Source of the DNA: Phormidesmis sp.
GTDB taxonomy: Bacteria; Cyanobacteriota; Cyanobacteriia; Leptolyngbyales; Leptolyngbyaceae
NCBI GenBank assembly: GCA_965248535.1
Contig: CBDFJR010000002.1
Coordinates: forward strand, 1,824,001-1,888,000
Direction of reading: 5' to 3'
Length of the DNA: 64,000 bases
Shown: positions 10,541 to 59,321 of the stretch, piece after piece
Layout of the letters: each line of letters begins with the position of its first letter
Position numbering within the stretch: position 1 is the stretch's first letter
Notes under the pieces: model-generated
Told to the model about the DNA's origin: nothing
What the model saw: the letters and a program-made list of their open reading frames with translations, nothing else
Database searches by the model: none
Translations under genes and position numbers: made by a program

Positions 10541-10736
10541 GTCGGCAGCAGCCCCTAAAGATACGAGGGTGACGATGCAGACCCAAACAAATTCCTAAAC
10601 CCTTTCTAGTCAAAGGCTGCTGCCAATAGGTGAGCGAATTGTTAGCTGGCAAGTGGGCATAGGGAATACTGTAAAGAAGTACTTCATATAAGCATGAGTA
10701 CTGGATTTACACAGTAAATCCATTGGCAATACAGTT

Positions 10737-11111
10737 ATGACAATTTATGAACGCGCCGCACAGATTTGGGCAGTTCTAGCTTTGGCTGCTCGAAACCGCC
10801 AGATTTTGACCTACGACATTGTTGGGAAATTAATTGGAGTTCCCCGACAGGCGTTAGGGCGGATGCTGGAACCAATTCAGTCTTATTGTTTGGTAAATCA
10901 TCTTCCACCGCTTTCAATTCTTGTGATCAGCGAACAAACAGGGATTCCCGGAACAGGTTTCATTGCGGCTCAAGATATTCCTCGAACTCAGGTTGAAGTG
11001 TTTGGATTCGACTGGTTGGCGCACACAGCACCTTCACCCGAAATTTTAGAGCAAGCTGCCAAACAGCTACCGTCTAATGGCGTTTCAATAGCACTGACTT
11101 CAAAGCCATAA
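10737..11111 (+). CDS. Hypothetical protein, possibly cassette-borne
   Basis: 124-aa ORF with LTY..VGKLIG...IQSYC..NHLPPLSILV...GIPGTGF pattern; lies in a HIP1-free segment. Confidence 0.75.
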   Translation: MTIYERAAQIWAVLALAARNRQILTYDIVGKLIGVPRQALGRMLEPIQSYCLVNHLPPLSILVISEQTGIPGTGFIAAQDIPRTQVEVFGFDWLAHTAPSPEILEQAAKQLPSNGVSIALTSKP

Positions 11112-11153
11112 TTGGCGATAACATAGAAATGCTGTCGAGATGTGAAACGTCGT

Positions 11154-11375
11154 ATGACTACTCGGCTAGAAGTTGAATCAGCGATCAAGCAATTGCCAGA
11201 GAGTGAAGTTCGCGATCTGGCAAAGTGGCTTCAAGACTATCTCGACGAGACGTGGGATCGACAAATTGAAGCAGATTTGGCATCAGGAAAATTAGATCGC
11301 CTCATTGCTCAGGCAGAAAAAGATATTGCAGCAAACAACGTAAGGGATCTCGATGAAATCCTTTGCGACGGCTGA
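11154..11375 (+). CDS. Putative antitoxin
   Basis: Small acidic ORF (WDRQIEADLASGKLDRL) overlapping the downstream toxin-like gene. Confidence 0.7.
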   Translation: MTTRLEVESAIKQLPESEVRDLAKWLQDYLDETWDRQIEADLASGKLDRLIAQAEKDIAANNVRDLDEILCDG

Positions 11376-11610
11376 TTTTTGGAAAGCGTATGGTGAATTG
11401 TCACCTGAGATGCAAAAGCAAGCGCGAAAAACTTATCAGCTTTGGCAGGAAAACTCACTTCATCCATCTTTGCATTTCAAGAAGGTCGGTAAAAACCTTT
11501 GGTCTGCCCGTGTTAGTGGTGGGTTTCGAGCATTAGCCTTGAAAAAGGGCGACGATTACTATTGGATTTGGATCGGTGATCATGATGAATACGAGAGTTT
11601 GTTGAAGTAG
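11353..11610 (+). CDS. ParE/RelE-like toxin
   Basis: FWKAYGEL...HPSLHFKKV...WSARVSGGFRAL...WIWIGDHDEY; about 85 aa. Confidence 0.8.
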   Translation: MKSFATADFWKAYGELSPEMQKQARKTYQLWQENSLHPSLHFKKVGKNLWSARVSGGFRALALKKGDDYYWIWIGDHDEYESLLK

Positions 11611-11626
11611 CTCGTTATGACAAGCC

Positions 11627-11711
11627 ATTTAATAACCCAGTGGAGCGGACGGTACAGAGTCTTCGCGCTACGTTCTGAACCTCTCGCCGCCGCTCACTTT
11701 AGCCGTTAGAA
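11627..11711 (+). other. attC-like integron cassette recombination site (degenerate R'')
   Basis: Left arm AGTG-G-AGCGG-A-CGG (11639-11652) pairs with CCGCCGCTCACT (11687-11698), leaving two extrahelical bases; ends in GTTAGAA at 11705; lies just after the toxin stop. Confidence 0.75.
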
Positions 11712-13292
11712 CGGAATCGCCGCTCCGTCTTCAGGAATGTGACCCAACTCAAGTCGATAGGTGCCGCTAAAGCCCGTTCCAACGATCTTAAACTCCCAGC
11801 CATCGTCCACTTTTTGCATCGGCGTTGCATTCTTAAGCGGATCATCTCCATCGGCAAACTCTTCGCCCGTATAGAGATAAAGCTGAAGCGTTGGCTTTAA
11901 GATCGCCCGCACATAATACTGTTTGGCAAACACAATATTATCCGAGAAGCCCACCCCAAACAAATCGCGTTCACCCACATAAAACTCTAGTCGCATCACC
12001 AGATCAGTTTGGGTCATGCTAGCAGCGCTGTTGAGAAATCCTTCCCAGATGAGGGCACGATCGTCTGCCCACCCAAAAGCCACCTGACTGTCGCTAAAAT
12101 CTCCTGTGCGAAACGGGCCATAGCAGTTTTCGGCTTCTTTGCTTTGGTGAAACAACTCGAAATCTACGCCCCGTGGTTTAATCGACAGGCCGAAAAAGAA
12201 CTCGCTTTTGCCAAATAGATCAAACCCGCGCTCAACCTTGGCCCGCACTTGCCGCAGTCGCACCCGCACGTCGCCAAAAAAGAACCGCGTTGCCACTTCA
12301 AACGACTCACGAGCGCTAGTTAAGGAATCAAACCCGCCATGAGGCTTGTGTACAAACGTCCGAGGTGCTCCCGGAATCTGAGCAAACTCTTGCTTGACCA
12401 GTCCATCGCTGCGGTTATAGTTTGTGCCAAACTCGCCAGCCACCGAAAACAGACGATTGAGGGCAGAGGCGGCGACATTGTTATAGGCTTTGTAGTTAGT
12501 GCCTACGACGGTGAGCAAGCGATCGAGGGGAAAGCATTTCGTGAAATTTTGATAACCCGCGCTGTTAGCAGGATCAGCCTGATTTTCGGGGTTGAAGTGC
12601 GCTAGCTCGTCGGCTGACTCAATGCCCAGCCAGCGCAGATCGTGAAGCACCTGAAACGAGATGCCCTTGTGGGGGGTGCCCAAGGTGACGACTTTGTTGA
12701 TGGCTTCATCGGCCGCCGTGACGCTCTGTTGGGGATAGGTGCGCTGAATGGCTTCTCTAACAATCAGCCCGCCCATCGAGTGAGCAATGATATTCACCTT
12801 GGGCTTGATGCCGTGTTTGACCTCTGCCAAGGCTCGAATAAACTCGATCAGCCGCGTTAGGGCTTCACCATATTTTGCAAACTCGCGATCGCACAGATCA
12901 TAATAGCGAAACACCCATAGGCTATGGCATGGGTCGTCATCTGCCTGCAACAACCGCAGGGCCATCGCAGGATCGATAATAATTTTTCCTTGAAAGAAGC
13001 TTGGATCAAACTTTTCTAGCGCCGCCGGAATGATCGGAGGGGCCGTTAGAGTGTTCGCATAGTAGCCAATGACATTTGTGGTGTCTTGATATCTCCAGTG
13101 CGACTTCATAAACCGCAGAATCAGCCCCTCATAGATATAGTTTTCGCCCCGTTTTTGAGGATAGACGCTGCCATCGTTGAACCCTTGATAGGTCATCTTG
13201 CGTTCATCGATCGTGTCGGTGCCTCCAAACCCGCGCACCAAAACGACGGGCAGAGGGCGACGAGTCGGAGCAGACCACCCAGAATTTGACAT
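11706..13292 (-). CDS. Alpha/beta-hydrolase (PGAP1/lipase-like) with C-terminal extension
   Basis: KVNIIAHSMGGL nucleophile elbow, VVTLGTPHKG, SDGLV. Confidence 0.75.
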   Translation of the reverse strand: MSNSGWSAPTRRPLPVVLVRGFGGTDTIDERKMTYQGFNDGSVYPQKRGENYIYEGLILRFMKSHWRYQDTTNVIGYYANTLTAPPIIPAALEKFDPSFFQGKIIIDPAMALRLLQADDDPCHSLWVFRYYDLCDREFAKYGEALTRLIEFIRALAEVKHGIKPKVNIIAHSMGGLIVREAIQRTYPQQSVTAADEAINKVVTLGTPHKGISFQVLHDLRWLGIESADELAHFNPENQADPANSAGYQNFTKCFPLDRLLTVVGTNYKAYNNVAASALNRLFSVAGEFGTNYNRSDGLVKQEFAQIPGAPRTFVHKPHGGFDSLTSARESFEVATRFFFGDVRVRLRQVRAKVERGFDLFGKSEFFFGLSIKPRGVDFELFHQSKEAENCYGPFRTGDFSDSQVAFGWADDRALIWEGFLNSAASMTQTDLVMRLEFYVGERDLFGVGFSDNIVFAKQYYVRAILKPTLQLYLYTGEEFADGDDPLKNATPMQKVDDGWEFKIVGTGFSGTYRLELGHIPEDGAAIPF

Positions 13293-13451
13293 ATGCTTAA
13301 CCTCTCACAAGACCATTTAAGTCGAACAATATTCAGTCAGTTCGGCAAACCTAGCTACACGGTCAAGGCAGCGTTTACGGAACTAAAGCTGTTTTATCAT
13401 TTCCTCGGTCTGGCGATCGTGAGCAATAACAGGTTTTAGCAGACCCGATCG

Positions 13452-14696
13452 CTAAACCGGATAGATGCGATCGAGGCGAATCAGCGTCTGCAACAGCATA
13501 TTCACCCCTTGAGCGCAGTCTTCGGGCGAGGTGTATTCGTCTTCGGCGTGACTGATGCCCGCCTGACTAGGGACAAAAATCATCCCCATGTCGGTGATCA
13601 ACCCCATTTCTTGAGCATCGTGACTGGCGCGGCTGGGCAGGTGGCAATAACTTAATCCCAAGTCTTTGCAGATTTGCTCGATCGCCGTCTGAATTTGAGC
13701 CGTCGCCAACACCGCTTCGGTTTGCAGAATAGGCGTGATCGTGATTTCGGTTTGGCTAGATTTAGCGATCGCTTGTAGCTGCTGCTGAAGCTGTTCTGAC
13801 AGCAAGATCAAATGCTCTTGATCAACATCGCGCATATCGATCGTCAGTTCAACTTGCCCCGGCACAATGTTGGCCGCGTTAGGAGCCACGTTTAGCGCGC
13901 CCACGGTGGCCACGGGCGAACCCGTCGCATTTTTGGCGAGATTGTTGACGGCCAATACAATCTGAGAGGCCGTCACTAACGCATCTTTTCTTAAGTGCAT
14001 CGGCGTAGTGCCCGCGTGATTCGATCGCCCAATCACCGTCACGATATAGCGGTGTTGCCCGACGATTCCTTCGACGACTCCGATCTGTTTCTCATAGTGT
14101 TCTAAAACGCCGCCCTGCTCAACGTGTAGCTCTACAAATGCCGCCATATCTGCTGGGTTGCGTTTAGCCGTGGCAAGCTTTGCCCAATCGCCACCCACGC
14201 GCTGAAGACAGGTCTCGATCGCGGTGCCATCATCTCGCCGATAATACTCAGGATCGCTCAGGGCAGTGCCAGAGATGGCTTTTGCGCCAATCATGCCGCC
14301 TTCTTCGTCGGTGAAGACGATCACTTCGACGGGATGGTTGAGTTGCAGGGAGCGATCGCGCAATACTCTCACCACTTCAATGCCCGCTAACACTCCCAGC
14401 GCCCCGTCATAGCGTCCGCCCGTCGGAACGGTGTCAATGTGAGATCCGGTGACTAGGGCAGGGGCCCCCGGTTTTTTTCCGGCGTAGGTGCCAATAATGT
14501 TGGCTGCCGCATCAATGTGGACACTCATTCCGGCTTCTCGCATCCATCGCTGCACCAGTTGCCGCGCCTGAATCACTTCTGGACTATAGGCAATGCGGCA
14601 CACGCCCCCATTGGGCAGCTTGCCGATCGTGGCAAGTTCAGCAATGTTGCGATTGAGACGATCTTGATCCACAAAGGGTGTGGTAATCACAGTCAT
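13452..14696 (-). CDS. Zn-dependent amidohydrolase (allantoate amidohydrolase / N-carbamoylase, M20 family)
   Basis: GSHIDTVPTGGRYDG, FTDEEG, ELHVEQG, NHAGTTPM, SHDAQ. Confidence 0.88.
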   Translation of the reverse strand: MTVITTPFVDQDRLNRNIAELATIGKLPNGGVCRIAYSPEVIQARQLVQRWMREAGMSVHIDAAANIIGTYAGKKPGAPALVTGSHIDTVPTGGRYDGALGVLAGIEVVRVLRDRSLQLNHPVEVIVFTDEEGGMIGAKAISGTALSDPEYYRRDDGTAIETCLQRVGGDWAKLATAKRNPADMAAFVELHVEQGGVLEHYEKQIGVVEGIVGQHRYIVTVIGRSNHAGTTPMHLRKDALVTASQIVLAVNNLAKNATGSPVATVGALNVAPNAANIVPGQVELTIDMRDVDQEHLILLSEQLQQQLQAIAKSSQTEITITPILQTEAVLATAQIQTAIEQICKDLGLSYCHLPSRASHDAQEMGLITDMGMIFVPSQAGISHAEDEYTSPEDCAQGVNMLLQTLIRLDRIYPV

Positions 14697-14843
14697 AATG
14701 ATTCACGGGTTAGACAACGAATGAAAAATGAACGATCGGGCCAGCGTTGACCGATCGCTATAGAGAATTTGATATAAACACTGTGGCTAATGCCTAGAGT
14801 ATTTTTAAGAGACGCGGGCAGCCGCCGCAGAATTGGCTACGGG

Positions 14844-14864
14844 AATTGTATACTGTATACGATT
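14844..14864. promoter_or_regulatory. Palindromic GntR/FadR-like operator
   Basis: AATTGTATAC-T-GTATACGATT between divergent genes; related TGTATACA at 16306-16313, upstream of puuE. Confidence 0.6.
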
Positions 14865-14943
14865 TCAAGCAAATCTCTAATGTGCTTCCCTATACTTTTT
14901 GCAAGAAGTCGCTCTCGTGTTCCTGTCTTAAAACGGTGATGTT

Positions 14944-15342
14944 ATGACTGAAACAAGTCTCGAAGCAAAACGTGTATTCATCTGTGGGTCGGCGCTCAAA
15001 GGGCAACCCGATCACAGCAATCTTCAATCTGCTCAGTTTATCCGATCGGCTAAAACTCGCCCTTTTTATCGTCTTCATTCAGCCGCCGACGGTTGGCATC
15101 CGGCGATTTATCAAGTTGAGGAAAATGGGGTGAGCATTCCCGGTGAGGTCTATGAACTAACGCGAGACCAGTATGATTATTTGGTGTCAACCGAGCCGCC
15201 CCATATGTATCCCAGCGATGTGATTTTAGACGATGGAGAAGTGTTAACCGCCATGCTCTATCCGCAGGAGTTGGTCGAGAAATTTGGCTGGTTAGATATC
15301 TCTGATCTGGGCGGCTGGGCGGCTTATAAATCAGCCCTTTAA
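14944..15342 (+). CDS. Gamma-glutamylcyclotransferase-like protein (allophanate hydrolase C-terminal-domain-like)
   Basis: FICGSALKGQPDH...T.P.YRL...GVSIPGEVYEL...DIS..GGWAAY. Confidence 0.75.
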   Translation: MTETSLEAKRVFICGSALKGQPDHSNLQSAQFIRSAKTRPFYRLHSAADGWHPAIYQVEENGVSIPGEVYELTRDQYDYLVSTEPPHMYPSDVILDDGEVLTAMLYPQELVEKFGWLDISDLGGWAAYKSAL

Positions 15343-16263
15343 GGCATTCTCAATCAGATTTGGCTGGTGATATTGATGCCAGTGTTTAGCGATATCAATG
15401 CGACGACAGAGCCATACGCGATCGTGTTGCTGCACATAATCGAGAAAGCGTGATAAAGCGGCGGCTCTTCCGGGTCGCCCGACCAATCGGCAGTGCAATC
15501 CTACACTCATCATTTTGGGTGCTGTTTCGCCTTCTGCATAGAGCACATCAAAGGCATCTCTCAAATAGGCAAAAAACTGATCGCCAGAGTTAAATCCTTG
15601 ATTGGTCGCAAATCTCATATCGTTATTATCTAGCGTGTAGGGAATGACAAGATGGGGTTTGCCATAGTCGTGAACCCAATAGGGTAAGTCATCTGAATAG
15701 CTATCAGAATCGTAGAGGAACCCGCCTTCTTCGACGACTAATTTGCGACTTGCGGGGCTAGTGCGCCCGATATAGCAGCCCAACGGACGATCGCCCGTGA
15801 CTCGCGTGTGCACCTCGATCGCTTGGCGCAAATGCGATCGCTCTGCCTCTTCTCCAAAATATTTATAGTCGATCCAGCGATAGCCATGACTGGCGATTTC
15901 CCAGGTTGCTTCTAGCATGGCGGCTACCGCGTCAGGGTGGCGCTCTAACGCCATTGCCACGCCATAGACGGTGACCGGAATGCCCCGCTGAGTAAATAAT
16001 CGATGCAAGCGCCAAAAGCCCGATCGACTGCCATATTCATAGCAAGATTCCATATTCATGTGGCGCAACCCGTTAAGCGGCACGGCTCCCACAATTTCTG
16101 AGAGAAACGTCTCAGACGATTGATCGCCATGCAAAATACAGGTTTCGCCCCCCTCTTCATAGTTGATCACAAACTGCACCGCCACCCGTGCCTGATTAGG
16201 CCAGTTGGGGTTAGGAGGGGTGCGCCCATAGCCGATCAGATCTCGTGGATAATTTGCTGACAT
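15331..16263 (-). CDS. puuE: Allantoinase PuuE (polysaccharide deacetylase fold)
   Basis: YPRDLIGYG, INYEEGGE, YEYGSRSGFWRL, PYTLDNNDMRF, GLHCRLVGRPGR. Confidence 0.93.
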   Translation of the reverse strand: MSANYPRDLIGYGRTPPNPNWPNQARVAVQFVINYEEGGETCILHGDQSSETFLSEIVGAVPLNGLRHMNMESCYEYGSRSGFWRLHRLFTQRGIPVTVYGVAMALERHPDAVAAMLEATWEIASHGYRWIDYKYFGEEAERSHLRQAIEVHTRVTGDRPLGCYIGRTSPASRKLVVEEGGFLYDSDSYSDDLPYWVHDYGKPHLVIPYTLDNNDMRFATNQGFNSGDQFFAYLRDAFDVLYAEGETAPKMMSVGLHCRLVGRPGRAAALSRFLDYVQQHDRVWLCRRIDIAKHWHQYHQPNLIENALKG

Positions 16264-16279
16264 GAGTCGCCGTGGTGAA

Positions 16280-17479
16280 TTAATTGAGGTTTGCCTTAAG
16301 CCCTATGTATACAGCGTGATCGGCTAACTGCTCAGAATTCTCCTGACTTTGATTGCTCAAGTCTTCCAGCCCTTGATCGTCTTCAACGACGTGATCGCCC
16401 GCGATCGGGGTCAACGATCGCAGCCTCACCGCCGGAATTTGATCAGACTCAACAGGCACACAGCGACAGGTTTTAGAGGTTTTGACTAAAAGTTTAGGGT
16501 GCCAGGTTACCTTAAACACGGCTCGCAGCAAGCGACGTAAAATTCTGCGGAGGATCAGCGGCAGTCGTGGGGTGCTAGACAGCGTTGCATAGAGCGCCCC
16601 CAAACGGTAGACCAGTGGGTTGATTAGCTGACGATCGTAGCACTCATCCCACAGGGTCTGGGCCGCAGCCCGATGCCCCTGATAAGACCAATAATCGGTG
16701 TAGAAGAAATATAGCCCGCCCAACATAGCGCGGCGCTCAGACGTGAGCAGCCCTTTTTGATTAAGAGTTTCGATCAACACCTTAAAGAAATGAGAATGGG
16801 AGTTGAGCCGAGACGTTAAAAACTCGCTTTCGCTCAAGCGATCGTCGTGCAACACTCGCCAAAAACAATCTGGATAATCAAAACGCCGATAGTTTAAACC
16901 CTGAGCCACGGCTCGAAAGTGTAGCTCAGTGTCTTGCAACACTCGCAGCCCTTCGTCCCACAGCCCTAGCTTGATCACGGCATCTCGTCGCCAGATCGGA
17001 CACATGGTTTGCCAGGGGGCATCAAAATCAAGAAAGCGATCGAGGTCGTTGACATCGCTTTCAACATTGAGCAACACCTTCATATCATGGGTCTGCTGCC
17101 TAAAGAGAATGCAGGGAAACACCCCAAAATCCAGGTCGGGATGGGCCTCCATGCAGTCAAAGCGCTTCTCTAAAGCCGTGGCTGCCAGATAATCATCAGA
17201 ATCGAGATAAATAATATAGGTGCCTTGGGAAAGCTCAGTTCCCAAGTTGCGGCAGACAGGGGCACCCGATTTTCCTTCTGTGCGACGGATATAGTGAATG
17301 CGAGGATCACGCTGACTGATTTGCGACATCAGATCGCTGGTATCGTCGGTTGAGCCGTCATCGACGACCCAAGCATCCCAGTCACTAAAGGTTTGACCCT
17401 GAAGAGAACTCAACGTGGACTGGAGAAACCCGCTTCGATTGAGCGTAGGAATAACAACAGAAATTGCAGGCGAAGGCAT
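16280..17479 (-). CDS. Glycosyltransferase family 2
   Basis: ISVVIPTLNR, VVDDGSTD, YLDSDD. Confidence 0.88.
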   Translation of the reverse strand: MPSPAISVVIPTLNRSGFLQSTLSSLQGQTFSDWDAWVVDDGSTDDTSDLMSQISQRDPRIHYIRRTEGKSGAPVCRNLGTELSQGTYIIYLDSDDYLAATALEKRFDCMEAHPDLDFGVFPCILFRQQTHDMKVLLNVESDVNDLDRFLDFDAPWQTMCPIWRRDAVIKLGLWDEGLRVLQDTELHFRAVAQGLNYRRFDYPDCFWRVLHDDRLSESEFLTSRLNSHSHFFKVLIETLNQKGLLTSERRAMLGGLYFFYTDYWSYQGHRAAAQTLWDECYDRQLINPLVYRLGALYATLSSTPRLPLILRRILRRLLRAVFKVTWHPKLLVKTSKTCRCVPVESDQIPAVRLRSLTPIAGDHVVEDDQGLEDLSNQSQENSEQLADHAVYIGLKANLN

Positions 17480-19215: not shown

Positions 19216-19254
19216 ACGTGTGAATTCAATCCTGTCAACTCTTTGCAGGGTTTG

Positions 19255-21958: not shown

Positions 21959-23047
21959 GTGGGATTGGGTAAATGGGTTGGGTTTTTAGGGTTAGCGATC
22001 GCGCTCTATATCTTGTGGGAGATTCGCGAGGTGTTGCTGTTGGTGTTTGCGGCCAGTCGTGTTTGCAACGGCACTCAATAGTCTGGTGCGGCGACTTCAG
22101 CGATCGGGGTTCAAGCGTGGAGGTGCGGTTGCCCTCTCGATCGTGACGTTCATAATCCTGTTAGTGGGCTTTATTGGGCTGATTGTGCCGCCGTTTATCG
22201 CTCAATTTCAGCAGTTAGTCCAACTCGTGCCGAAAGGACTCGACAACCTTCAGAATCGGTTTCAAGATATGCAGAATATGATTCCTGGCTACTCTCAATA
22301 TGTGCCGGGAGTGGATGATTTAATTCGGCAGATTCAGCCGTTAGCAACTCGCGTTGCCGGAAACTTTTTTGCCTGGTTTTCAAATGCGCTGGCGATCGTT
22401 ATTAACTTACTGCTAGTTGTGATCTTGACGGTGATGTTTTTGATCAATCCTCAACCCTATCGTCGAGGCTTGTTTTACTATTTCCCTCGTTTTATCGTCG
22501 GCGGGCTGACCAAATTTTCTCGCTGTGTGAGATTGCGCTGGTTAATTGGATCGGCGGCATCTTGATCAATATGGTGGTGATCGGCACGGTGAGCGGCATT
22601 GGCTTGCTAGTTTTGCGGGTGCCTTTGGTGTTAGCCAATGCGCTGTTGGCGGGGTTGTTAGAAGCGATTCCTAATGTCGGCCCAACGTTAAGTGTGATTC
22701 CACCTGTGGCGATCGCGCTGATCGAAGACCCGTGGAAGGCGGGGGCTGTGGTGGTTTTATACATTGTGATTCAGCAGCTTGAGCAATATTTGCTGGTGCC
22801 GTTTGTGATGTCAAAGCAGCTATCGATGCTGCCTGCGGTGACGTTGTTATCTCAAGTGGTCTTTGCCATCTTTTTTGGATTTTTAGGCCTGTTTCTAGCC
22901 ATTCCTTTAGTGATCGTGGGTCAGATTTGGCTGCAAGAAGTGTTGATCAAAGATGTGCTTGACCACTGGCATGAGAGTGAGAAGGTTGTAGCTGACCCAG
23001 CGATCGCTGATGACGGGTCGAGTGACGATTCAGAACCACTTTTCTGA
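21959..23047 (+). pseudogene. AI-2E (PerM) family transporter with two frameshifts
   Basis: GLGKWVGFLGLAIALYILWEIREVLLLVFAA / VVFATALN... / ...AIPNVGPTLS; +1 near 22054 and -1 near 22470. Confidence 0.75.
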
Positions 23048-35007: not shown

Positions 35008-36958
35008 TCATGATTCTTCCCCACCTTCATCGCTCCCAGAATGACTGGGATGGAAGTAGTCATAAATCTGCTGCGCCAACCGCGGCCCCACACCCGGAAC
35101 CGTCGTCAACTGCGCCGGAGACGCTTCCCGAATGTAGTCGATCGAGCGAAACGTCGCCAAAAGCTGTTTTTGTTTGTGATGCCCCAAGCCCGGAATCTCA
35201 TCGAGGCTCGATCGCCGCATCCGATCGCTGCGCTGCTGCCGATGAAAACTCACCGCAAATCGGTGCGCCTCGTCTCGCAATCGCCGCAAAAGCTGCACCC
35301 CCGGCTGGTCTGCCTCCGTCGTCAGCGGCAGCGATTCCCCCGGCAAAAAAATTTCTTCTCGCTGCTTGGCTAAACTCACCACTTTCACATCTTCGAGCAA
35401 GTTCATATCTCGCAGCACCTTCACCACCGCCGAAAGCTGCCCTTTGCCACCATCAATCATGATCAAATCAGGAAAATCAGCATAGGCAGACGTGTGAGCC
35501 TTCAGCACCGAAGACTCGCTGCTGATCTGCTCCCCTCTGGCTTTGGCCGCCGCATATTTGCGAAAACGCCGACCGATCACCTCCGCCATGCTTGCAAAGT
35601 CATCTGAGTGACCCGACATCACTTTGGGATTTTTGATTTTATAGTGGCGATAGTGCTGTTTGGCAGGCAACCCATCGACAAACACCACCTGAGAAGCCAC
35701 GGCATCCGACCCCTGAATATGAGAGATGTCATAGCCCTCAATGCGGCGCGGCAACTCTGGCAGGTCTAAAATCTCCGCTAAGTCGAGAGTGGCTTGGGCA
35801 TTGCGATCGGCAAATCGCTGCGTTCTCGCCAATTCATATTCGGCGTTGCGCTCTACCATTTCCAGCAGTTCTGCTTTCATCTGGCGTTGCGGGGCCACGA
35901 TCGTCACTTTGCGACCCTTTGCCTGGGTGAGAAATTCTGCCAGCATCTCGGTTTCGGGCAACTCGTGCTGCACCAAAACCTCAGCCGGGATCTCAACCGG
36001 ATCGACACTCTGATAGTGTTCTTCTAACACGCGCTGCAAAATCGCCCCCGGCTCACCTGACTGAGAATCGGCCACAAAGCCCAGTCGCCCCACTAAGCGA
36101 CCCGCCCGAATCTGAAAAAGCTGCACACACGAATGAGTCTCGTCGGCGGCAAGAGCGATCGCGTCTCGCGAAATCGTGTCATCCGGCAGGGCAACTTTTT
36201 GCTCGGCACCGAGAGATTTTAGCCCGATAATCTGGTCGCGCAGGCGGGCCGCGTGCTCAAAGTTAAGCGCTTCAGAGGCTTGCTCCATTTGAGCAGCCAG
36301 GGTTTCTTCAAGCTCACTCGTGCGCCCCTGAAAGATCATCGCTACCTTCTGCACGGTTTTGCGATACTCCTCAGACGTGATCATCGCCTGACACACCCCC
36401 GGACAACGGCCAATATCATAATTGAGACAGGGACGGTCTTTAAACAGAGGCTGAGGACGTTGACGGAGGGGAAAAATCCGCTTGACCAGATGCAGCGTTG
36501 TTCTCAAGCGTGCGAGAGTCTACATAAGGGCCATAGTAGCGATCGCGCTCTTTGCCCATCCGTCTTTTGCGGGTGATGAAAATACGCGGATATTCCTCTG
36601 ACCAAGTGATGCACAGATAGGGATATTTCTTATCGTCTTTCAGCAGCACATTGAAGTGAGGCTGATGCTGCCGAATCAAGTTTGCCTCTAGGGCCAGCGC
36701 TTCAGCTTCGGTGTCGGTGACGATAAACTCAACTTCAACCACCTGACGCAGCATTAAGGCGATTCGAGGTCGGGTGTCGTGCCCATTGAAATAAGAGCGA
36801 ATGCGCGATCGTAGCCGCTTCGATTTGCCGATATAGAGAATTTGATCGCTGCTATCACGCATATAGTAGACCCCCGGTTCTTGAGGAATCTCTTTAATGC
36901 GCCCTTCGAGGCGATCGGGGTCTTGAATTAAAGGAACTGTTTTATTCGTTAGAGTCAC
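35008..36958 (-). pseudogene. uvrC: Excinuclease ABC subunit C, split by a +1 frameshift near 36506 (possibly a sequencing error)
   Basis: GIY-YIG N-terminus ([19 protein letters not shown]) in one frame; [24 protein letters not shown] and HhH in another. Confidence 0.88.
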
Positions 36959-37186
36959 AATAATTTGACGAGGTGGTAACCGTTGCAAGGCCAGATTTTG
37001 CAATCAAGCCGTTGGTCTGTTCCAGGGAGTTGAGTAGGCGGAAAACTGCTCTAGGTTTAGAGGCTCATCTTCATATTCACACCTTCATCTTAAATTTTAA
37101 ACTAGTAATCTCCGTCACCTATTCTCGCCTTCTGCTGTGATAGCTATCTTGTGAGTATCCATCTATACTCGACATACGCACTTTAT

Positions 37187-44594: not shown

Positions 44595-44601
44595 AAAACT
44601 C

Positions 44602-50544: not shown

Positions 50545-50615
50545 AAGATCTACCGAAGGGTGAGCAAAATAGAATAAAGGTGAGGAGCAAACCAACCGTG
50601 TGAGAAGGTTGCAGA

Positions 50616-51734: not shown

Positions 51735-51766
51735 AAGTTATGAACGGTCTTGTAAATAACCCTATC

Positions 51767-51799
51767 AGGTTACACCGTGACCTTAAAGACCAGGTTAAG
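51767..51799 (-). promoter_or_regulatory. Possible Pho (SphR) box upstream of pstS
   Basis: CTTAACCT-GGT-CTTTAAGG...GTAACCT on the - strand; only the first repeat fits PyTTAAPyPy(T/A) perfectly. Confidence 0.4.
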
Positions 51800-52567: not shown

Positions 52568-52584
52568 ACTCAACTCAACCACCC

Positions 52585-52623
52585 AAAGGGGCGCAGTGTG
52601 GGATCGCGATCATGTGCCCCTTT
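52585..52623. terminator. Bidirectional terminator
   Basis: AAAGGGGCGCA...TGTGCCCCTTT between convergent genes. Confidence 0.6.
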
Positions 52624-52633
52624 GAGTCGAGCC

Positions 52634-53161: not shown

Positions 53162-53407
53162 AGATCTTTCTCCTCTGACAGGTTTAAACAATCGTGTGCT
53201 CTAAAATGCTGGCGCTGCCGAACCAAGATTTATTTAGCCTTTAGACAATAGAAAATCCATCGTCCAAAGTCAATCTGAAAGCTGAGGTTTTGCTTAAGCT
53301 CCACCAATCTCCCGCTTTAGGGGCGTTTTGCAGAGAAGGGATGCCGCAGAATGGAGACAGGTTTTCTGCTCTGCGATCGTCCTTCTGATTGAAACTGGGT
53401 TATCTCC

Positions 53408-55018
53408 ATGCCGCTGCCCCGACTTTTGACGCTGATCTTTGGTCTCACGCTCATTTTGGGGCTAATGATTTGGCTGATCGATTCGCTTTCTCGGTTGTCT
53501 TGGCAACTGGCTTACTATCCGTTGCTGGGGCCGATTTTGATCTTCTTGATCATTGCCCTGCTAGGCGTGTTGATTGCAGCCTTTGTCTACTATTTCTTTT
53601 GGCTGCCTCGTCAACAACAGCAGCGTAAACGCTCTCGCCGCACTGCTCCCAGGGTTTCACCCGTCAAAGCAGAAGCCGCCGAAGAAAATCTCAAAGCGGT
53701 GCGGCAGCAGTTAAAGCAGATTCAAGACGAGGTGACACGGCGAGAGATGTTGACGCGATCGCGCGAGATCGAGCAAAATCTCGCCCGTGGTGAACTGATG
53801 GTCGTCGTCTTTGGCACGGGATCGGCGGGCAAAACCTCAGTGGTGAATGCGCTGATGGGGCGAATGGTGGGCAAGGTCGGCGCTCCGATGGGCACAACCG
53901 AGGTCGGAGAAACCTATCGACTGAAATTAAAGGGAGTCGATCGAGAAATTTTGATCACTGACACGCCGGGAATTCTAGAAGCAGGCGTAGCCGGAACCGA
54001 ACGGGAAAAACTCGCTCGACGACTGGCGACGGAGGCAGACTTGCTGCTGTTTGTATTGGATAACGATCTGCGGCAGTCAGAATATGACCCGATGAAAATG
54101 TTGGCGGAGATTGGCAAACGCTCGATCGTGGTGGTCAACAAAGCCGATCTCTATCGAGAAGAGGATTTAGAAACCATTCTGGCTCGGCTGCGCGAACGGG
54201 TGCGTGGGGTGGTCTCGACTCTTGACGTGATCTCGATCGCCGCCAATCCTCAAGCAGCCAAACTTGACACCGGAGAAACGATTCAGCCCGATGCTGACAT
54301 CATGCCGTTAATTAGACGGATGGCGGCAATTTTGAGGGCAGAAGGCGAAGACCTGCTGGCCGACAATATTTTGCTGCAATCGCAGCGGCTAGGTGAAGAG
54401 GCCCGTCGTTTAATTGACGGTCAACGGCGACGACAGGCTGAAAAAATCGTCGAGCGGTTTCAGTGGATCGGGGCAGGCGTGATTGCAGTGACTCCGCTTC
54501 CGGTGGTGGATCTGTTGGCAACGGCTGCGGTCAATGCCCAAATGGTGGTCGAGATTGGCAGAGTTTATGGCTGCGAAATCAACATGGAGCGCGGGCGAGA
54601 AATGGCCCTATCGCTGGCTAAAACTCTGGTGAGTTTAGGCGTGGTCAAAGGCGCGATCGAGCTTCTCAGCACGGCCCTACAACTGAGCGTCGGCGGATTT
54701 CTCTTCGGGCGCGCTATTCAGGGCATCAGTGCGGCTTATCTGACTCGCATCGCAGGCAAAAGCTTTATTGAATACTTCCGGCATGACCAAGATTGGGGCG
54801 ATGGCGGCATTACTGAAGTGGTGCAGCGCCAGTTTCAACTCAATCGTCGCGACGAGTTTATCAAGTCCTTTGTGCAAGACGCGATCAAAAAAGTGATCCG
54901 ACCCTTGCAGCTTGAAGCCAAAATCGAAGACGATGACGAACCCGGTGCCCTTGTGCAGAGAGAGCCAGAACCCCTAGAAATGGAACCCCTCGAAGAGACG
55001 ATCGACGATTGGCGTTAA
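53408..55018 (+). CDS. Membrane-anchored GTPase with YcjF/DUF697 domain
   Basis: GTGSAGKTS, DTPG, NKAD, TPLPVVDLLA; two N-terminal TM segments. Confidence 0.85.
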   Translation: MPLPRLLTLIFGLTLILGLMIWLIDSLSRLSWQLAYYPLLGPILIFLIIALLGVLIAAFVYYFFWLPRQQQQRKRSRRTAPRVSPVKAEAAEENLKAVRQQLKQIQDEVTRREMLTRSREIEQNLARGELMVVVFGTGSAGKTSVVNALMGRMVGKVGAPMGTTEVGETYRLKLKGVDREILITDTPGILEAGVAGTEREKLARRLATEADLLLFVLDNDLRQSEYDPMKMLAEIGKRSIVVVNKADLYREEDLETILARLRERVRGVVSTLDVISIAANPQAAKLDTGETIQPDADIMPLIRRMAAILRAEGEDLLADNILLQSQRLGEEARRLIDGQRRRQAEKIVERFQWIGAGVIAVTPLPVVDLLATAAVNAQMVVEIGRVYGCEINMERGREMALSLAKTLVSLGVVKGAIELLSTALQLSVGGFLFGRAIQGISAAYLTRIAGKSFIEYFRHDQDWGDGGITEVVQRQFQLNRRDEFIKSFVQDAIKKVIRPLQLEAKIEDDDEPGALVQREPEPLEMEPLEETIDDWR

Positions 55019-55174
55019 ACCCACTGACGTTAAATCCAAGGGCAATAATTCCAAAATAGGCGCGGGGATCATCTCACCCCGCATATCTAAAAACTGCACC
55101 AGCACCAGATAGCCGATGCCCAAAATTAGCGCGATCGCGCCCGTCACATAAGCCACAAACTTCGAGCGATCCAT
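54974..55174 (-). CDS. Small membrane protein
   Basis: MDRSKFVAYVTGAIALILGIGYLVLVQFLDMRGEMIPAP. Confidence 0.7.
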   Translation of the reverse strand: MDRSKFVAYVTGAIALILGIGYLVLVQFLDMRGEMIPAPILELLPLDLTSVGLTPIVDRLFEGFHF

Positions 55175-55204
55175 AAAATTACTAAAAATCACAAACGACT
55201 ATAA

Positions 55205-55358
55205 ATCTCTCTGCTAGAGAACAGAATGTAAGGGCATGGCACCGCCGTGCCCATGAGATCTCTCTGCTAGAGAACAGAATGTAAGGGCATGGCATCGCCG
55301 TGCCCATGAGATCTCTCTGCTAGAGAACAGAATGTAAGGGCATGGCACCGCCGTGCCC
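55205..55358 (+). repeat. Tandem repeat, about 3 x 53 bp, each unit containing a family-A REP-like palindrome
   Basis: ATCTCTCTGCTAGAGAACAGAATGTAAGGGCATGGCAYCGCCGTGCCCATGAG at 55205, 55258 and 55311 (last copy 48 bp). Confidence 0.92.
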
Positions 55359-55507
55359 GTGGCCTGCGCCACCCACAAATATGGCTTCATCCGCCCTCCT
55401 AAGTCTAAGCAAGATTCGCCAACCTCGGATCTATCTCCTCAAAATCAGCCGAAACAGAAATCCGATAAAGTGGTTTAATGTCGTCTACACCTTGCTGACG
55501 AGACGAG

Positions 55508-56488
55508 ATGGATGCTGCCGTAGATTTACCGAGTCAACCGCCTGAGAACGATCGCCCGATCGTGATTCAAACCTACGACCTGAGCAAACGCTACCGAACT
55601 GGATTTTGGATGAATCAGACGGTGGCATCGCTCAAAACCGTTAACCTGACGGTCTATAAAGGTGAAACCTTTGGGCTGTTGGGTCAAAATGGCGCAGGCA
55701 AAACCACCCTGCTCAAAACGCTTTTAGGAATCGTGCGCCAAACGTCTGGGCGGGCAACGCTATTAGGAGAGCCTCTGGGCGATCGTGTCGTTAAACAGCG
55801 CATCGGCTATCTGCCCGAAAATCCCTATTTCTATGACTATCTGACGGGTTGGGAGATTTTGAAGTTTGCGGCCGGGTTATTTCAGGTGCCACGATCGGTG
55901 CAGCGCAAACGCATCCCCGAACTGCTTGACCTGGTGGGCTTGTCTCACGCGACCGCCCGCAAAAAGCAACTGCGACAATATTCTAAGGGAATGCTGCAAC
56001 GCATTGGCATGGCCCAGGCTCTCATCAACGATCCAGAATTGGTGTTTTTAGATGAGCCGATGTCAGGTTTAGATCCGCTCGGACGCTATCAACTGCGAGA
56101 AATTATTCTGTCTCTCAAGTCTCAAGGCAAGACAATTTTTTTTAACAGTCACGTCTTGTCGGATGTCGAAAAGATCTGCGATCGTGTCGCCATTCTCGCC
56201 CAAGGAGAATTGATTTCGGTCGGCTCGTTGCAAGATCTGTTGGGCACTGCCGACACTTATCAAGTCAAAGTCAAAGGCGGAAACCCCGACGTGCTCAAGC
56301 AGTGGATCGTTGATTTAGAATTTCAAGAAGGCTATTGGCGGGGACATCTCAAGGGCGATCCCCAAGATTTCATAGCCAGCCTGCGATTGATGAGAGCGCA
56401 GTTGATTTCAATTCAGTTAGCTCGCCCGTCGCTCGAAGAGTTTTTTGTGCAACAGTTGCACGATCGTGGCATTCACTCCAGCAGTTAA
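55508..56488 (+). CDS. ABC transporter ATP-binding protein
   Basis: GQNGAGKTT, YSKGMLQR, LDEPMSGLD. Confidence 0.92.
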   Translation: MDAAVDLPSQPPENDRPIVIQTYDLSKRYRTGFWMNQTVASLKTVNLTVYKGETFGLLGQNGAGKTTLLKTLLGIVRQTSGRATLLGEPLGDRVVKQRIGYLPENPYFYDYLTGWEILKFAAGLFQVPRSVQRKRIPELLDLVGLSHATARKKQLRQYSKGMLQRIGMAQALINDPELVFLDEPMSGLDPLGRYQLREIILSLKSQGKTIFFNSHVLSDVEKICDRVAILAQGELISVGSLQDLLGTADTYQVKVKGGNPDVLKQWIVDLEFQEGYWRGHLKGDPQDFIASLRLMRAQLISIQLARPSLEEFFVQQLHDRGIHSSS

Positions 56489-56498
56489 CCAGATTTTT

Positions 56499-57266
56499 AT
56501 GAATTCCCCAACGCCCGTCCTTTCTGCTTCGGGATTGATCAAAAGCTTTGGCGGCGTGATGGCGGTCAACAACGCCTCGATCGAGGTCGCTCCCGGCAGC
56601 GTCACCGGGTTGATCGGCCCCAATGGCGCGGGCAAAACGACGCTGTTTAATCTGCTGTCTAACTTTATCCATCCTGACCAGGGGCAGGTGCTGTTTGACG
56701 GAGAGCCGATTCAAAATTTGCAGCCTCACCAAATCGCTCAACGGGGCATGGTTCGGACGTTTCAGGTTGCCCGCGTGCTGTCTCGCCTGTCGGTTTTAGA
56801 AAATTTGCTGTTAGCGGCTCAACACCAGACAGGGGAAAAATTTTGGAGCACCTGGTTTTTAGGCAAACAGATCGCCAAAGAGGAGCGAGAAGCCCGCGAT
56901 CGGGCCATGGAAATCTTAGAATCGGTCGGGCTGGCAGCCAAAGCCCAAGACTATGCGGGTGGGTTGTCGGGCGGACAGCGCAAATTATTAGAGATTGCCC
57001 GATCGCTGATGACCCGTCCAAAACTTGTGCTGCTCGATGAGCCTGCGGCGGGAGTTAATCCCACTTTGATCAACCAAATCTGCGAATACATTCACTACTG
57101 GAACCGTCAGGGACTGTCTTTTTTGATCATCGAACACAACATGGATGTGATTATGACGTTGTGCGATCGCGTTTGGGTGCTCGCTGAGGGCAGCAATCTC
57201 GCTGTTGGCTCTCCCAGTGAGATTCAAACCAATGCTCAGGTTTTAGAAGCCTATTTGGGACAGTGA
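56499..57266 (+). CDS. Branched-chain/neutral amino acid ABC ATP-binding protein (LivG/NatA-like)
   Basis: GPNGAGKTT, LSGGQRKLLE, DEPAAGVNP, EAYLG. Confidence 0.88.
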   Translation: MNSPTPVLSASGLIKSFGGVMAVNNASIEVAPGSVTGLIGPNGAGKTTLFNLLSNFIHPDQGQVLFDGEPIQNLQPHQIAQRGMVRTFQVARVLSRLSVLENLLLAAQHQTGEKFWSTWFLGKQIAKEEREARDRAMEILESVGLAAKAQDYAGGLSGGQRKLLEIARSLMTRPKLVLLDEPAAGVNPTLINQICEYIHYWNRQGLSFLIIEHNMDVIMTLCDRVWVLAEGSNLAVGSPSEIQTNAQVLEAYLGQ

Positions 57267-57341
57267 TCCCCAAGAGTTTGAGCAGTGGTTTAGAGAATAG
57301 GAACGGTATGATTGAAGAGAAGTTAATTTATGTAACGTTCT

Positions 57342-57956
57342 TTGACTGCCACCTTTAAACCCACCGATAGCGTCATTCTGCCCACTAGCTGGAACTGTCT
57401 CAATCCCGTTTGGCAGGGCAACGATCGCGACGTTCAGCAAGGTTTGCCCCACAGCCAGTTAGCCCCCACCTGGCAAATGCTGCTGCTAGGAGATGGTTCC
57501 CCAACTCGTCACCTGCAACTCTTGACAGGCGAACCGACGGAAGTAGACGTGATCGATATGTCTACGATCGGGTTCGATCTCGACAATGCCCCTGCCTCGA
57601 TCGAGCGTGTGCCCGGCCCGCGAGTGCGGCGACAAGTTTGGCTGAGAACTGCCTCTGGGCAACGATTAGCCTATGCCACCTCTTGGTGGGAGCAAAGCCA
57701 CGTTGATGACTATTTGCAGAACCGATCGCTGCCCATCTGGGCCAGTCTCGCCCGGCTGCGAACTGAGCTATATCGAGACGTGCAGGGCATTTGCTATGGT
57801 CACTCTAGCGCCCTAGAAACCGCCTTTGAGCAATCGGGTGCTTTTTGGGGACGACACTATCTTTTCTGGCACCACGGGCAGCCTCTGACTTTGATCTACG
57901 AAGTGTTTTCACCCTACTTACAGAAATATCTGGGTGAAATGCAGCTTCCTCCTTAA
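57342..57956 (+). CDS. Chorismate lyase-like protein (DUF98)
   Basis: LLGDGSPTRHL, RRQVWL, LIYEVFSP. Confidence 0.8.
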   Translation: MTATFKPTDSVILPTSWNCLNPVWQGNDRDVQQGLPHSQLAPTWQMLLLGDGSPTRHLQLLTGEPTEVDVIDMSTIGFDLDNAPASIERVPGPRVRRQVWLRTASGQRLAYATSWWEQSHVDDYLQNRSLPIWASLARLRTELYRDVQGICYGHSSALETAFEQSGAFWGRHYLFWHHGQPLTLIYEVFSPYLQKYLGEMQLPP

Positions 57957-58552
57957 GCGTCCCGAACTGTTCTGAGATAGCGAGGGCGGCAGGGAGTCCC
58001 CCAACAAACCTGCTGTTCTGGCAGTGACGAAAAAACGCTGCTTCTGGCTCCTACTAAAGCGTTGGCTCCAATCTCAACACCTGCCCCGATAAAGCAATCC
58101 GTGGCGATCCAGACTCCGTTGCCGATGGCGATCGCAGCCGTCACCAGCCCAAATCTAGGATCTTGAGGGTCATGACTCCCGGTGCACAAATAGCTTTTTT
58201 GAGAAATCACACACTGCTCACCGATCTGAATCGACTCCAAACTATAGAAAACTACGTCATCGCCGATCCAGCTATAGTCCCCGATCGTCACCTTCCACGG
58301 ATAGGTAAACCGAGCCGTCGGACGAATCAGCACCGCTTTGCCAATTTTTGCCCCAAACAGCCGCAACAGATGACATCGCACCGAGTTCAACGGGTGAGGA
58401 GTCAACGGAAACACGACCCCTTGCACGAGCCACCACAGCAGCACATACCAACCGGGGCGGCCACGATCGAAGCCAGTCTGGTCATAGTGTCGCAAGTCAA
58501 TGAGGGGTTTTACAGCCAAAACCGGGGGACGTTCTGCCGATTCTTCATCCAT
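57953..58552 (-). CDS. wcaF: WcaF-like polysaccharide acetyltransferase
   Basis: LLRLFGAKIG, YPWKVTIGDYSWIG, YLCTGSHD; hexapeptide repeats. Confidence 0.85.
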   Translation of the reverse strand: MDEESAERPPVLAVKPLIDLRHYDQTGFDRGRPGWYVLLWWLVQGVVFPLTPHPLNSVRCHLLRLFGAKIGKAVLIRPTARFTYPWKVTIGDYSWIGDDVVFYSLESIQIGEQCVISQKSYLCTGSHDPQDPRFGLVTAAIAIGNGVWIATDCFIGAGVEIGANALVGARSSVFSSLPEQQVCWGTPCRPRYLRTVRDA

Positions 58553-58554
58553 TG

Positions 58555-59315
58555 TTATGCCGCCTGAGTCATCGATAGTGATGTAGTGATGAATTTATAC
58601 ATATACTTGGGAGTTGAGTTATTTTGAGATTGTTGAAAAGATGATTATGTTAAAAAGCGTAGATTGATTTGTAGAGGTAGATTGCAATGAACCATGAGAA
58701 ACGTCTCACAGCGATGCTCATACCGTTTTATCTAGGAGAGGAGCAAGATCCAGAAGGACGGATGATTCAAGATATGTGGGCATGGGATTTTGAAGACCTA
58801 GAATGTGCTCATGATTACATCCAGTGGTTGTTCCCAATCTCGGAGAAGAGTGCGTTTAACATGGATGCACCCGTTGTAGATGAAGAAGTTATTCAAGCGT
58901 TTCAAAGTGATCAACGCTTGCATCAAAATTTACTGAAATCGTTTACGGTCATGCTTCGGTTTTATGGGTTGCAGTGCGATCGGAAGGAAACGGAAAAAGC
59001 AGTTGTTAGTCGCTCAGAAGACTATCCAATGCGTAAGCGTGAATGGGTATGCAGGTTTGACCACAATTATCTTCGGATTACCCGTATCTTAAAATGCCTA
59101 ATGACATTCGGTTTGGAAGACGAAGCACGAGCATTTTATGAATGCTTGCGACAAATCTACCGTGAAGACAGTGATCAGATTGGAGGGGAGACATTTCAGT
59201 ATTGGGCAAATGCAGTCAAACCCAGCGTGGCAGCATAACAATCCGCTTGCACGCCGACTCTATGAATATAGGTGGTTGAGTTCGAGAGGTTCTTAGCAGC
59301 GAGTGAAGCGGAACG
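58555..59315 (+). mobile_element. Solitary integron-type gene cassette (761 bp)
   Basis: Starts G|TTATGC (58554-58560); the gene ends in the complementary GCATAAC (59233-59239); the attC ends at G|TT (59315); excision restores the RBS-ATG of wcaF. Confidence 0.8.
58687..59238 (+). CDS. Opioid growth factor receptor (OGFr)-like domain protein
   Basis: LECAHDYIQWLFP, FYGL, HNYLRITRILKCL; GAGG RBS. Confidence 0.8.
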   Translation: MNHEKRLTAMLIPFYLGEEQDPEGRMIQDMWAWDFEDLECAHDYIQWLFPISEKSAFNMDAPVVDEEVIQAFQSDQRLHQNLLKSFTVMLRFYGLQCDRKETEKAVVSRSEDYPMRKREWVCRFDHNYLRITRILKCLMTFGLEDEARAFYECLRQIYREDSDQIGGETFQYWANAVKPSVAA

Positions 59316-59321
59316 TTCTCC
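59233..59321 (+). other. attC site
   Basis: R'' GCATAAC; arm TCCGCTT-G-CAC (59242-59252) pairs with GTGAAGCGGA (59303-59312) with one extrahelical base; R' GTT at 59315. Confidence 0.8.

Follow-up and report, generated by a model that had tools for sequence, protein, structure and literature searches.

Two single integron cassettes in the chromosome of a Phormidesmis cyanobacterium: probable insertions at G|TT, one with an empty site in seven congeners

Introduction

Can a gene cassette of an integron settle singly among housekeeping genes, far from any integrase that could have put it there? The question is raised by a 64,000-nucleotide stretch of the chromosome of Phormidesmis sp. (Cyanobacteriota; GenBank assembly GCA_965248535.1, contig CBDFJR010000002.1, positions 1,824,001 to 1,888,000), in which a sequence-only reading had noted two isolated sites of the attC type, the recombination site of integron cassettes, and had proposed that an integrase acting in trans may seed cassettes at GTT sites across the chromosome instead of into one array. 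We refer to the whole stretch as the window (G000:C2:1824001-1888000, G000 being the genome, of 5.03 Mb in 5 contigs, and C2 and C5 two of its contigs). With a probability of about three in four, we read the two sites as the attCs of two single cassettes of the genome's own family, each inserted at G|TT by an integron integrase (IntI). For the second cassette both junctions are defined and the empty site is seen in related genomes; for the first the right junction is defined. The agency of IntI, a circular intermediate and the left end of the first cassette are proposed.

Single attC sites lacking an integrase have been named SALINs by Loot et al. (bioRxiv 10.1101/2022.09.11.507474), whose survey counts 3400 of them in 2469 genomes, with a single one in 1847 of these. 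Experiments in the same report show IntI placing cassettes into genomic attG sites (consensus 5'-GWT-3'), insertions that can disrupt genes, and the mechanism put forward for the window was therefore already established. Clusters of at least two attCs lacking an integrase (CALINs) were defined earlier by Cury et al. 2016 (PMC4889954), with secondary-site integration and rearrangement among the origins proposed; 431 single attCs were discarded there as possible false positives.

Two attC sites of the genome's own family

To avoid a circular test of the two window sites, the genome's own integron was sought first. A crude search for AAC...GTT stems, which began near the integrases and was extended to the whole genome, yielded 504 candidates, among which 11 rows (7 distinct sites) had a GCGGAC/GCCGC core in common. 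These seven seeded an nhmmer profile, and a covariance model, R1, was built from 20 strong aligned attCs of the genome, including the two and four that adjoin the integrase genes intI-1 and intI-2 and none from the window. In this alignment R'' reads GCATAAC and R' reads GTTATGC or GTTAGNC, with an unpaired AAC/AAC spacer, a variable loop and an invariant bulged G and bulged A that both lie on the 5' arm only. The structure (22 pairs) reaches 82.1% pairing, a figure that does not exceed 42.9% once partner columns are slid, and 49 double-change cells compare with 23.1 in shuffles, none of 500 shuffles reaching the observed value. The family thus has the marks of an attC site, namely a hairpin of imperfect pairing whose central spacer is unpaired and whose extrahelical bases all lie on the L'' arm.

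The two sites, as matched by R1, are as follows.

11624 to 11714, plus strand: attC 1 (58.8 bits, E 4.7e-15), with R'' extension at 11624-11633, spacer AAC at 11634-36 and R' GTT at 11705-07
59230 to 59324, plus strand: attC 2 (30.8 bits), with R'' GCATAAC at 59233-39 and R' GTT at 59315-17

Both align with R1 over their full length (model positions 1-93) and on the strand of the open reading frame (ORF) that they follow. The E-value of attC 2 is 1.1e-6 in the window and 9.1e-5 genome-wide; the opposite strand of site 1 scores 11.3 bits only, and R1 with filters off finds no further match in the 64-kb window at E<0.8. By the seven-site nhmmer profile, site 1 reaches E 2.4e-7 and site 2 is found at the right coordinates with a weak E of 0.82. 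An Rfam gathering scan of the window returned three tRNAs only and no attC family match. Single-strand DNA folds of both sites on both strands have energies no better than shuffles (z -1.8 to +0.3), so that folding energy alone is uninformative here.

Each site lies 3' of an ORF and in its orientation, the R'' 7-mer of site 1 starting 17 nt past the stop at 11610 and the stop TAA of ORF 58687-59238 falling inside the R'' of site 2. Site 2 has the inverse-core and core boxes RYYYAAC ... GTTRRRY, its R' GTT being followed by host letters. The boxes are degenerate at site 1, which has an R' of GTTAGAA but an R'' triplet of AAT in place of AAC. The observations of the sequence-only reading hold up well: counted over both terminal 7-mers, R'' to R', the two are 85 nt (11627-11711) and 89 nt (59233-59321) long, within the range it gave; each R' GTT does fall on a host signal (the TAA stop of a hydrolase gene at site 1, the spacer between ribosome-binding site and ATG of hpsU at site 2); and no integrase or attI is visible in the window, where a Pfam scan of 56 ORFs found no integrase and blastn searches with intI-2, the attI region of the integron, and the head element and ~712-nt attC-inserted element described below gave no match. 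Within the 64-kb window each site is thus one attC with its coding sequence, with neither intI nor a further att site in its vicinity, as in a SALIN. With 47.5 kb and housekeeping genes separating them, the two do not form a CALIN. Since both also belong to one family with the arrays beside the integron integrases, we regard it as confirmed that they are real attCs of the genome's own family.

A cassette between the ribosome-binding site and the start codon of hpsU

The clearest case is the second cassette, which we compared with seven genomes of the same genus (G001-G007, the congeners), used throughout for empty sites and synteny.

57953 to 58552, minus strand: hpsU, hormogonium polysaccharide acetyltransferase (NCBIfam NF038307 equivalog, 341.6 bits, cut-off 305)
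58554 to 58560, plus strand: left junction of cassette 2, GTTATGC, the G from the host and TTATGC from the cassette
58555 to 59315, plus strand: cassette 2, 761 bp, absent in 7/7 congeners with contiguous flanks
58687 to 59238, plus strand: OGFr_N-domain protein, 183 amino acids (Pfam PF04664, 1.1e-31)
59318 to 59323, minus strand: GAGGAG, former ribosome-binding site of hpsU, in congeners 5 nt from the ATG
59325 to 60266, minus strand: family-2 glycosyltransferase, upstream operon partner of hpsU (Pfam Glycos_transf_2, 4.6e-16), adjoining hpsU in congeners

In every one of the seven congeners the flanks are contiguous and uninterrupted, the 772 bases from 58553 to 59324 being missing, and the left junction of cassette 2 is the point where homology to them breaks. 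Their empty site reads CCATT-AAT-CTCCTC, that is, the ATG, five nucleotides, GAGGAG and, after it, the TGA that ends the upstream glycosyltransferase gene; subtracting cassette 2 from G000 leaves CCATT-G|TT-CTCCTC. Both junctions of the cassette are G|TT and its left end is complementary to its own R'', as in a product of recombination between an attC and a chromosomal attG: the left-end 7-mer GTTATGC is the exact complement of R'' GCATAAC, and the 10-mer GTTATGCCGC (58554-63) agrees with the reverse complement of the R'' extension, GTTATGCTGC, at 9 of 10 positions (null fraction 0.057).

The R' GTT of site 2 now sits between CTCCTC (59318-23) and the hpsU ATG (58550-52), from which it is 761 bp removed. 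The cassette lies antisense to hpsU and splits the ribosome-binding site from the start codon, and hpsU is still a full-length ORF. The separation might affect hpsU expression. Promoter and terminator scans round both cassettes gave counts equal to the shuffled expectation and thus permit no statement on expression.

Outside this genome, ten loci with OGFr_N homologues (in Nostoc, Pseudanabaena and Pyrinomonadaceae) have no attC of the family at E<=1, and the homologous loci in G009, G007 and G003:C56 have no significant attC. Beside a homologue in G003 there is an attC (21.8 bits), which lies immediately upstream of the gene instead of downstream. In one X2 sequencing contig, 58522 is linked to 59325 through 35 other letters, with a side of 23 letters; we rejected its reading as an excision product, as it most likely stems from a diverged relative with an empty site.

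Two integrases and a proposed route

The candidate enzymes lie elsewhere on the same contig.

C2:161487-162425, plus strand: one of the two intI genes, TIGR02249, 1.66 Mb from the window
C2:1131581-1132513, minus strand: the other intI gene, TIGR02249, 0.69 Mb from the window

The two TIGR02249 matches in the genome score 467.9 and 466 bits (cut-off 265), contain no internal stops, and their products are 68% identical. Residues 12-320 of IntI-2 align end to end with VchIntIA of Vibrio cholerae, whose structure has been solved (2A3V; E 9e-93), across the IntI-specific segment and the RHRH...Y catalytic motifs. They are accordingly tyrosine recombinases of the integron integrase type, with the IntI-specific insertion. 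Both genes are intact; their activity on the window sites is a prediction from sequence.

Under the route that we favour, each cassette would first have been an excised circle, and one of the two recombinases, acting in trans from 0.69 or 1.66 Mb away, would have recombined the folded bottom strand of its attC with a double-stranded chromosomal 5'-G|TT-3' (attC x attG). The predicted product is G + TT-cassette-...-attC-G + TT. Cassette 2 would have entered a polysaccharide operon in antisense orientation, parting the Shine-Dalgarno sequence of hpsU from its ATG, and cassette 1 would have landed, or been left behind after a rearrangement, directly 3' of the hydrolase stop codon.

Following the direct repeats on the attI side, the two integrons have an identical segment of ~190 nt in common (C2:1132760-1132945 and C2:161080-161265), which ends in a short hairpin and then CAATC|GTTATGCCGC. 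It may be an ORF-less first cassette of both integrons, or part of attI.

A second cassette at a synteny break

The other cassette has a putative toxin-antitoxin pair and a less tractable setting.

9722 to 10540, plus strand: tatC, host gene left of cassette 1 (Pfam TatC, 1.3e-64)
10641 to 10643, plus strand: proposed left junction G|TT of cassette 1, GTTAGCTGGC
10642 to 11705, plus strand: cassette 1 as proposed, 1064 bp with three ORFs, running from the proposed left G|TT to the G of the attC R'
10737 to 11111, plus strand: ORF of 124 amino acids, no Pfam or NCBIfam match
11154 to 11375, plus strand: ORF of 73 amino acids, a putative antitoxin by position, overlapping the start of the toxin ORF; no significant family
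11353 to 11610, plus strand: ParE-like toxin, 85 amino acids (Pfam PF24732 ParE_like, 1.2e-6, 28.8 bits, cut-off 24.4)
11706 to 13292, minus strand: alpha/beta-hydrolase gene (Pfam DUF676/PGAP1), its TAA stop abutting the crossover

On the right the boundary is sharp. The R' GTT occupies 11705-11707, the complement of 11706-11708 is the hydrolase TAA stop, and homology to G007 begins exactly at 11706, at the TT of R', which is also the last base of that stop. On the left, homology to the congeners on the tatC side stops at 10540-10552, and GTTAGCTGGC reads as cassette starts typically do, with the same letters as the R' extension of the attC at C2:1672932; in the 10-mer scan described below this left end falls outside the top three candidates (best 8/10, null 0.49). 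The synteny break itself lies directly 3' of tatC, at window 10541-10640. In G003, G006 and G007 the gene that follows tatC maps ~770 kb away in G000 (C2:1062189-1063439). The partner breakpoints of this rearrangement were checked for attCs, and as the nearest is 70 kb away, a rearrangement mediated by attCs is not supported.

At G007:C440 lies a homologue of the antitoxin region (87%; window 11034-11625) from which the toxin gene is cleanly deleted; homology there starts only at 11034, within the 124-amino-acid ORF, and a CTAAC-N5-GTTAG remnant stands upstream. It is possible that the loss of an attC joined two cassettes into what is now cassette 1.

Lone attCs across the genome and its relatives

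The scan of the genome with R1 gave 49 rows at E<=1, from which one opposite-strand duplicate and three rows of E>0.01 were removed. The window sites are by no means the only ones: 45 attCs remain, grouped by 5-kb clustering into 24 loci, namely 13 singletons, 9 integrase-less clusters and 2 integrase-linked arrays. Only six of the 45 adjoin an integrase (two beside intI-1, four beside intI-2), in the canonical divergent layout in both cases. In arrays, a cassette starts with the R' extension of the preceding attC, and the reverse complement of these 10 letters stands directly before that cassette's own spacer, with a match of 10/10 at C5:2444005 and 9/10 at C5:353095.

Among 41 related genomes sampled, with attCs counted at E<=1e-5, the family occurs in 40, in 1 to 90 copies each, and intI exceeds its cut-off in 24. 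Twelve of the 40 attC-bearing relatives have no intI match at E<=1e-40, several of the twelve being incomplete assemblies. The attCs are scattered likewise in three single-contig relatives, and in G039 none of 11 lies within 50 kb of its intI. In G024, a single contig, runs of attCs at C1:2607149-2612695, 2636091-2640610 and 3566644-3575300 have a spacing of ~308 bp and near-identical scores; they are probably arrays of tiny, duplicated, ORF-less cassettes.

Eight of the 13 singletons were compared with the seven congeners, and flanks proved contiguous for three in most of them, for one in a single relative, and at breaks or repeats for four.

Site 2: flanks contiguous, insert absent in 7/7 congeners
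C2:1958673: insert of 762 bp absent in 6/7 and present in G003; 11-13 host letters missing
C2:1340891: insert of 2.28 kb absent in 5/7; boundary ~100 nt beyond R'
C5:2161768: ~2.4 kb unmatched; both flanks on one contig in G003 only
Site 1: flanks non-syntenic
C5:1631242: flanks non-syntenic; homology stops at R' in G002 and G007
C2:852861: flanks non-syntenic
C2:377162: flanks repeat-rich and uninformative

At C2:1958673 a second AGCC-GTT follows the attC by 64 nt, and it is there that the insert ends, as G|TTATTTCAC. For all 13 singletons the 10-mer complementary to the R'' extension was sought as a left end and scored against a null fraction. Site 2 (0.057) and C2:852861 (0.093) alone stand out, the other 11 having null fractions of at least 0.49, which makes a matching left end a weak test on its own. 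When 10 singletons were re-scanned with filters off, none had a second attC within 3 kb.

How far, then, does the proposal of chromosome-wide seeding in trans reach? It is right in essence, already published, and over-generalised. Two distant IntIs, 24 loci and the empty site of cassette 2 speak for it, and the matching left end that it predicts is there in cassette 2 (exact 7-mer, 9/10 over the 10-mer). Such an end is statistically undetectable in 11 of the 13 singletons; a clean empty site, seen in 7/7 congeners for cassette 2, is wanting for cassette 1, and four of the eight singletons compared lie at breaks or repeats. The further suggestion that dispersal replaces the array does not stand, given two integrase-linked arrays of 2 and 4 attCs, 9 integrase-less clusters, and 12-13 loci led by a head element. 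The genome-wide claim holds as "dispersed", with singletons of mixed origin.

Four terminal attCs have right flanks unlike a cassette start, with TTCTC or TTCTA after the G: site 2 (GTTCTCCTCG), C5:1631242 (GTTCTCGTTG), C5:2161768 (TTTCTCTGAG) and C2:377162 (GTTCTACTGC). This may reflect a target preference, the cases being too few to tell.

A head element and an attC-inserted element

Two further repeats accompany the family. The head element (~0.75-1 kb; 17 copies, 85-93% identical, one of them at G000:C2:374799-375849) immediately precedes an attC locus, oriented like the cassettes, in 12-13 copies and stands alone in 4-5; some loci so headed are among those counted as singletons. On its opposite strand it carries a conserved ORF of 123 amino acids, which has no Pfam family and no Atlas hit and for which 410 homologues of near-identical length were found, with 14 cluster representatives at E<=0.001. 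The remainder includes ~550 nt of non-coding repeats ending AATAATA|GTTAGACC, the point at which the first cassette starts, and the left end in most copies is G|TTAGGGAG. In integron 2 it adjoins the 3' end of intI-2, and five congeners have it next to intI, whole or fragmentary, at seven places in all. An Rfam scan (E<=0.01) of the locus that contains C2:374799-375849 gave no match.

The integrase-less clusters have this platform-like head in common, and by blastn the two cassettes of the window are without it. The head element is possibly an integrase-less, multi-copy integron platform. A wider reading, which we consider doubtful though worth entertaining, is that the integron of this clade is mainly dispersed and has two layers: single cassettes that IntI may insert in trans at G|TT in housekeeping operons, the two in the window being of this kind, and a multi-copy platform module devoid of integrase, made up of the conserved 123-amino-acid ORF and an attI-like repeat region. 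If true, the module could seed new arrays wherever it lands, as a mobile attI.

The ~712-nt element is found in nine copies at or inside attC sites (C2:1136159-1136870, with others at C2:156851, 609283, 1133216 and 1673011 and at C5:44912, 793635, 933031 and 1939395), six of the further copies being 98-100% identical and two diverged. In seven attCs with this element, there 99-100% identical, the R'' extension is replaced by an identical GGGCGTACAC, and the array bookkeeping is broken there.

Weighing the explanations

Lone attCs could also be leftovers of larger arrays, broken up by rearrangement and by decay of the neighbouring attCs, with fragmentation rather than insertion at G|TT accounting for their isolation. 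Cassette 1 lends itself to such an account: it lies exactly at a synteny break in 7/7 congeners, the usual neighbour of tatC is ~770 kb distant, and the cassette is possibly a fusion of two. The flanks of C5:1631242 and C2:852861 are non-syntenic as well, and several terminal R' extensions resemble cassette starts. Against this, cassette 2 and C2:1958673 are single units with cassette-type ends inside collinear, conserved gene pairs, and no second attC occurs within 3 kb of the 10 re-scanned singletons or elsewhere in the window. Fragmentation is refuted for cassette 2, and for the pair of sites as a whole we deem it unlikely.

The cassettes might instead have arrived without IntI, by homologous recombination after uptake of DNA bearing the flanks, or through a step carried out by putative attC-homing group II introns. 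Such a course, which would accord with the nine copies of the ~712-nt element at or inside attC sites and with Nostoc homologues of the OGFr_N protein (68-76% at the amino-acid level) that have no family attC nearby (0/10 loci), so that the gene also lives outside cassettes, seems to us very unlikely: by blastn the window has no copy of the element, and two G|TT junctions with an R' remainder at the left end of cassette 2 are a crossover signature of IntI that homologous exchange would not be expected to leave. As for a generic dispersed hairpin repeat unrelated to integrons, resembling repetitive extragenic palindromes (REP) or miniature inverted-repeat transposable elements (MITE), the number and dispersal of the sites (45 here; 40/41 related genomes) and their unremarkable folding energy are what it would predict, yet it is already contradicted by arrays of the same family, spaced by one ORF, beside both intI genes in canonical divergent layout, by AAC/GTT boxes, unpaired spacer, two one-arm bulges and covarying stems, and by R''/R' bookkeeping that holds between neighbouring cassettes. 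Its probability is close to nil.

Insertion of both cassettes by IntI at G|TT remains our preferred account, and several points weigh against it. The role of IntI is predicted. Site 2 is weak by sequence alone, so that its identification rests on structure and junctions. The congeners read AAT rather than GTT at the target, which means that a GTT target must be supposed for the lineage of G000. One extrahelical base is a G on the top strand and hence a C on the bottom strand, whereas three sites studied elsewhere are reported to extrude G, A or T there (in part PMC5027507). At cassette 1, GTTAGCTGGC agrees with the complement of the R'' extension GCCATTTAAT at 7/10 positions, which is not significant against the null, and AAT for AAC in R'' produces a C-A mismatch at the bottom-strand cleavage pair, for which reason we would expect cassette 1 to be poorly mobile. 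Its tatC and hydrolase sides lie on different contigs in 7/7 congeners, including a 10-contig assembly, and with the cassette at a synteny break no empty site can be rebuilt. Finally, the R' of several singletons matches their own R'' (C2:2107265, 9/10), which fits decayed arrays or array remnants better than insertion at attG.

Other features of the window

Two genes of the window are split. An AI-2E family transporter at 22047-23047 (plus strand) is read as ORFs of 172 and 161 amino acids, which match the profile at positions 29-176 and 200-325 and overlap at 22562-22565; a frameshift, an error in sequencing or a pseudogene could each account for the split. The uvrC gene at 35008-37003 (minus strand) has its GIY-YIG N-terminal part at 36440-37003 and the rest at 35008-36507, with an overlap of 68 nt.

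Relation to known systems and significance

Sedentary chromosomal integrons of the Vibrio type have homogeneous attCs, many cassettes of unassigned function, toxin-antitoxin cassettes and a single large array. The present system resembles them in an attC family that is homogeneous within the host clade, in its many cassettes of unassigned function and in the putative toxin-antitoxin pair of cassette 1, and differs in having no single large array, its attCs being spread over 24 loci with integrase-linked arrays of 2 and 4 detected sites. With CALINs it has in common attCs that lack an integrase in a genome encoding IntI elsewhere, and, unlike those clusters of at least two, each site is single within the 64-kb window (PMC4889954).

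The closest likeness is to the SALINs and attG insertions of Loot et al. (10.1101/2022.09.11.507474), as far as that account describes them: single units of one ORF and an attC, with no integrase or att site nearby and an integrase proposed to act in trans, inserted where an ordinary gene or operon offers a minimal G-W-T site, with possible disruption or uncoupling of the host genes. Differences lie in the setting, here a natural event in a cyanobacterium with two chromosomal IntIs of its own as against the class 1 IntI1 in E. coli; in the target, G|TTCTCCTCG, which shows no evident sign of the CRGM motif that E. coli hotspots are reported to have on their right-hand side; and in number, with ~13 singletons in this genome as against one in most SALIN genomes of that survey (1847/2469). 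A limited search of the literature found no work dedicated to dispersed cassettes in cyanobacteria.

The window adds two new members to the SALINs, one of them unusually clean. Evidence for attC x attG recombination has so far come mainly, in the account of Loot et al. (10.1101/2022.09.11.507474), from the class 1 integrase in E. coli and from a census of lone attCs that possibly includes false positives. With both junctions, an R' remainder and seven genomes that show the empty site, in a distant phylum, cassette 2 is a clean natural instance. It also indicates that cassette insertions can land at delicate points, here between the ribosome-binding site and the start codon of hpsU. As attCs of the family occur in 40/41 relatives, 12/40 of them without an intI match, this clade offers a good natural system for the biology of integrons outside arrays.

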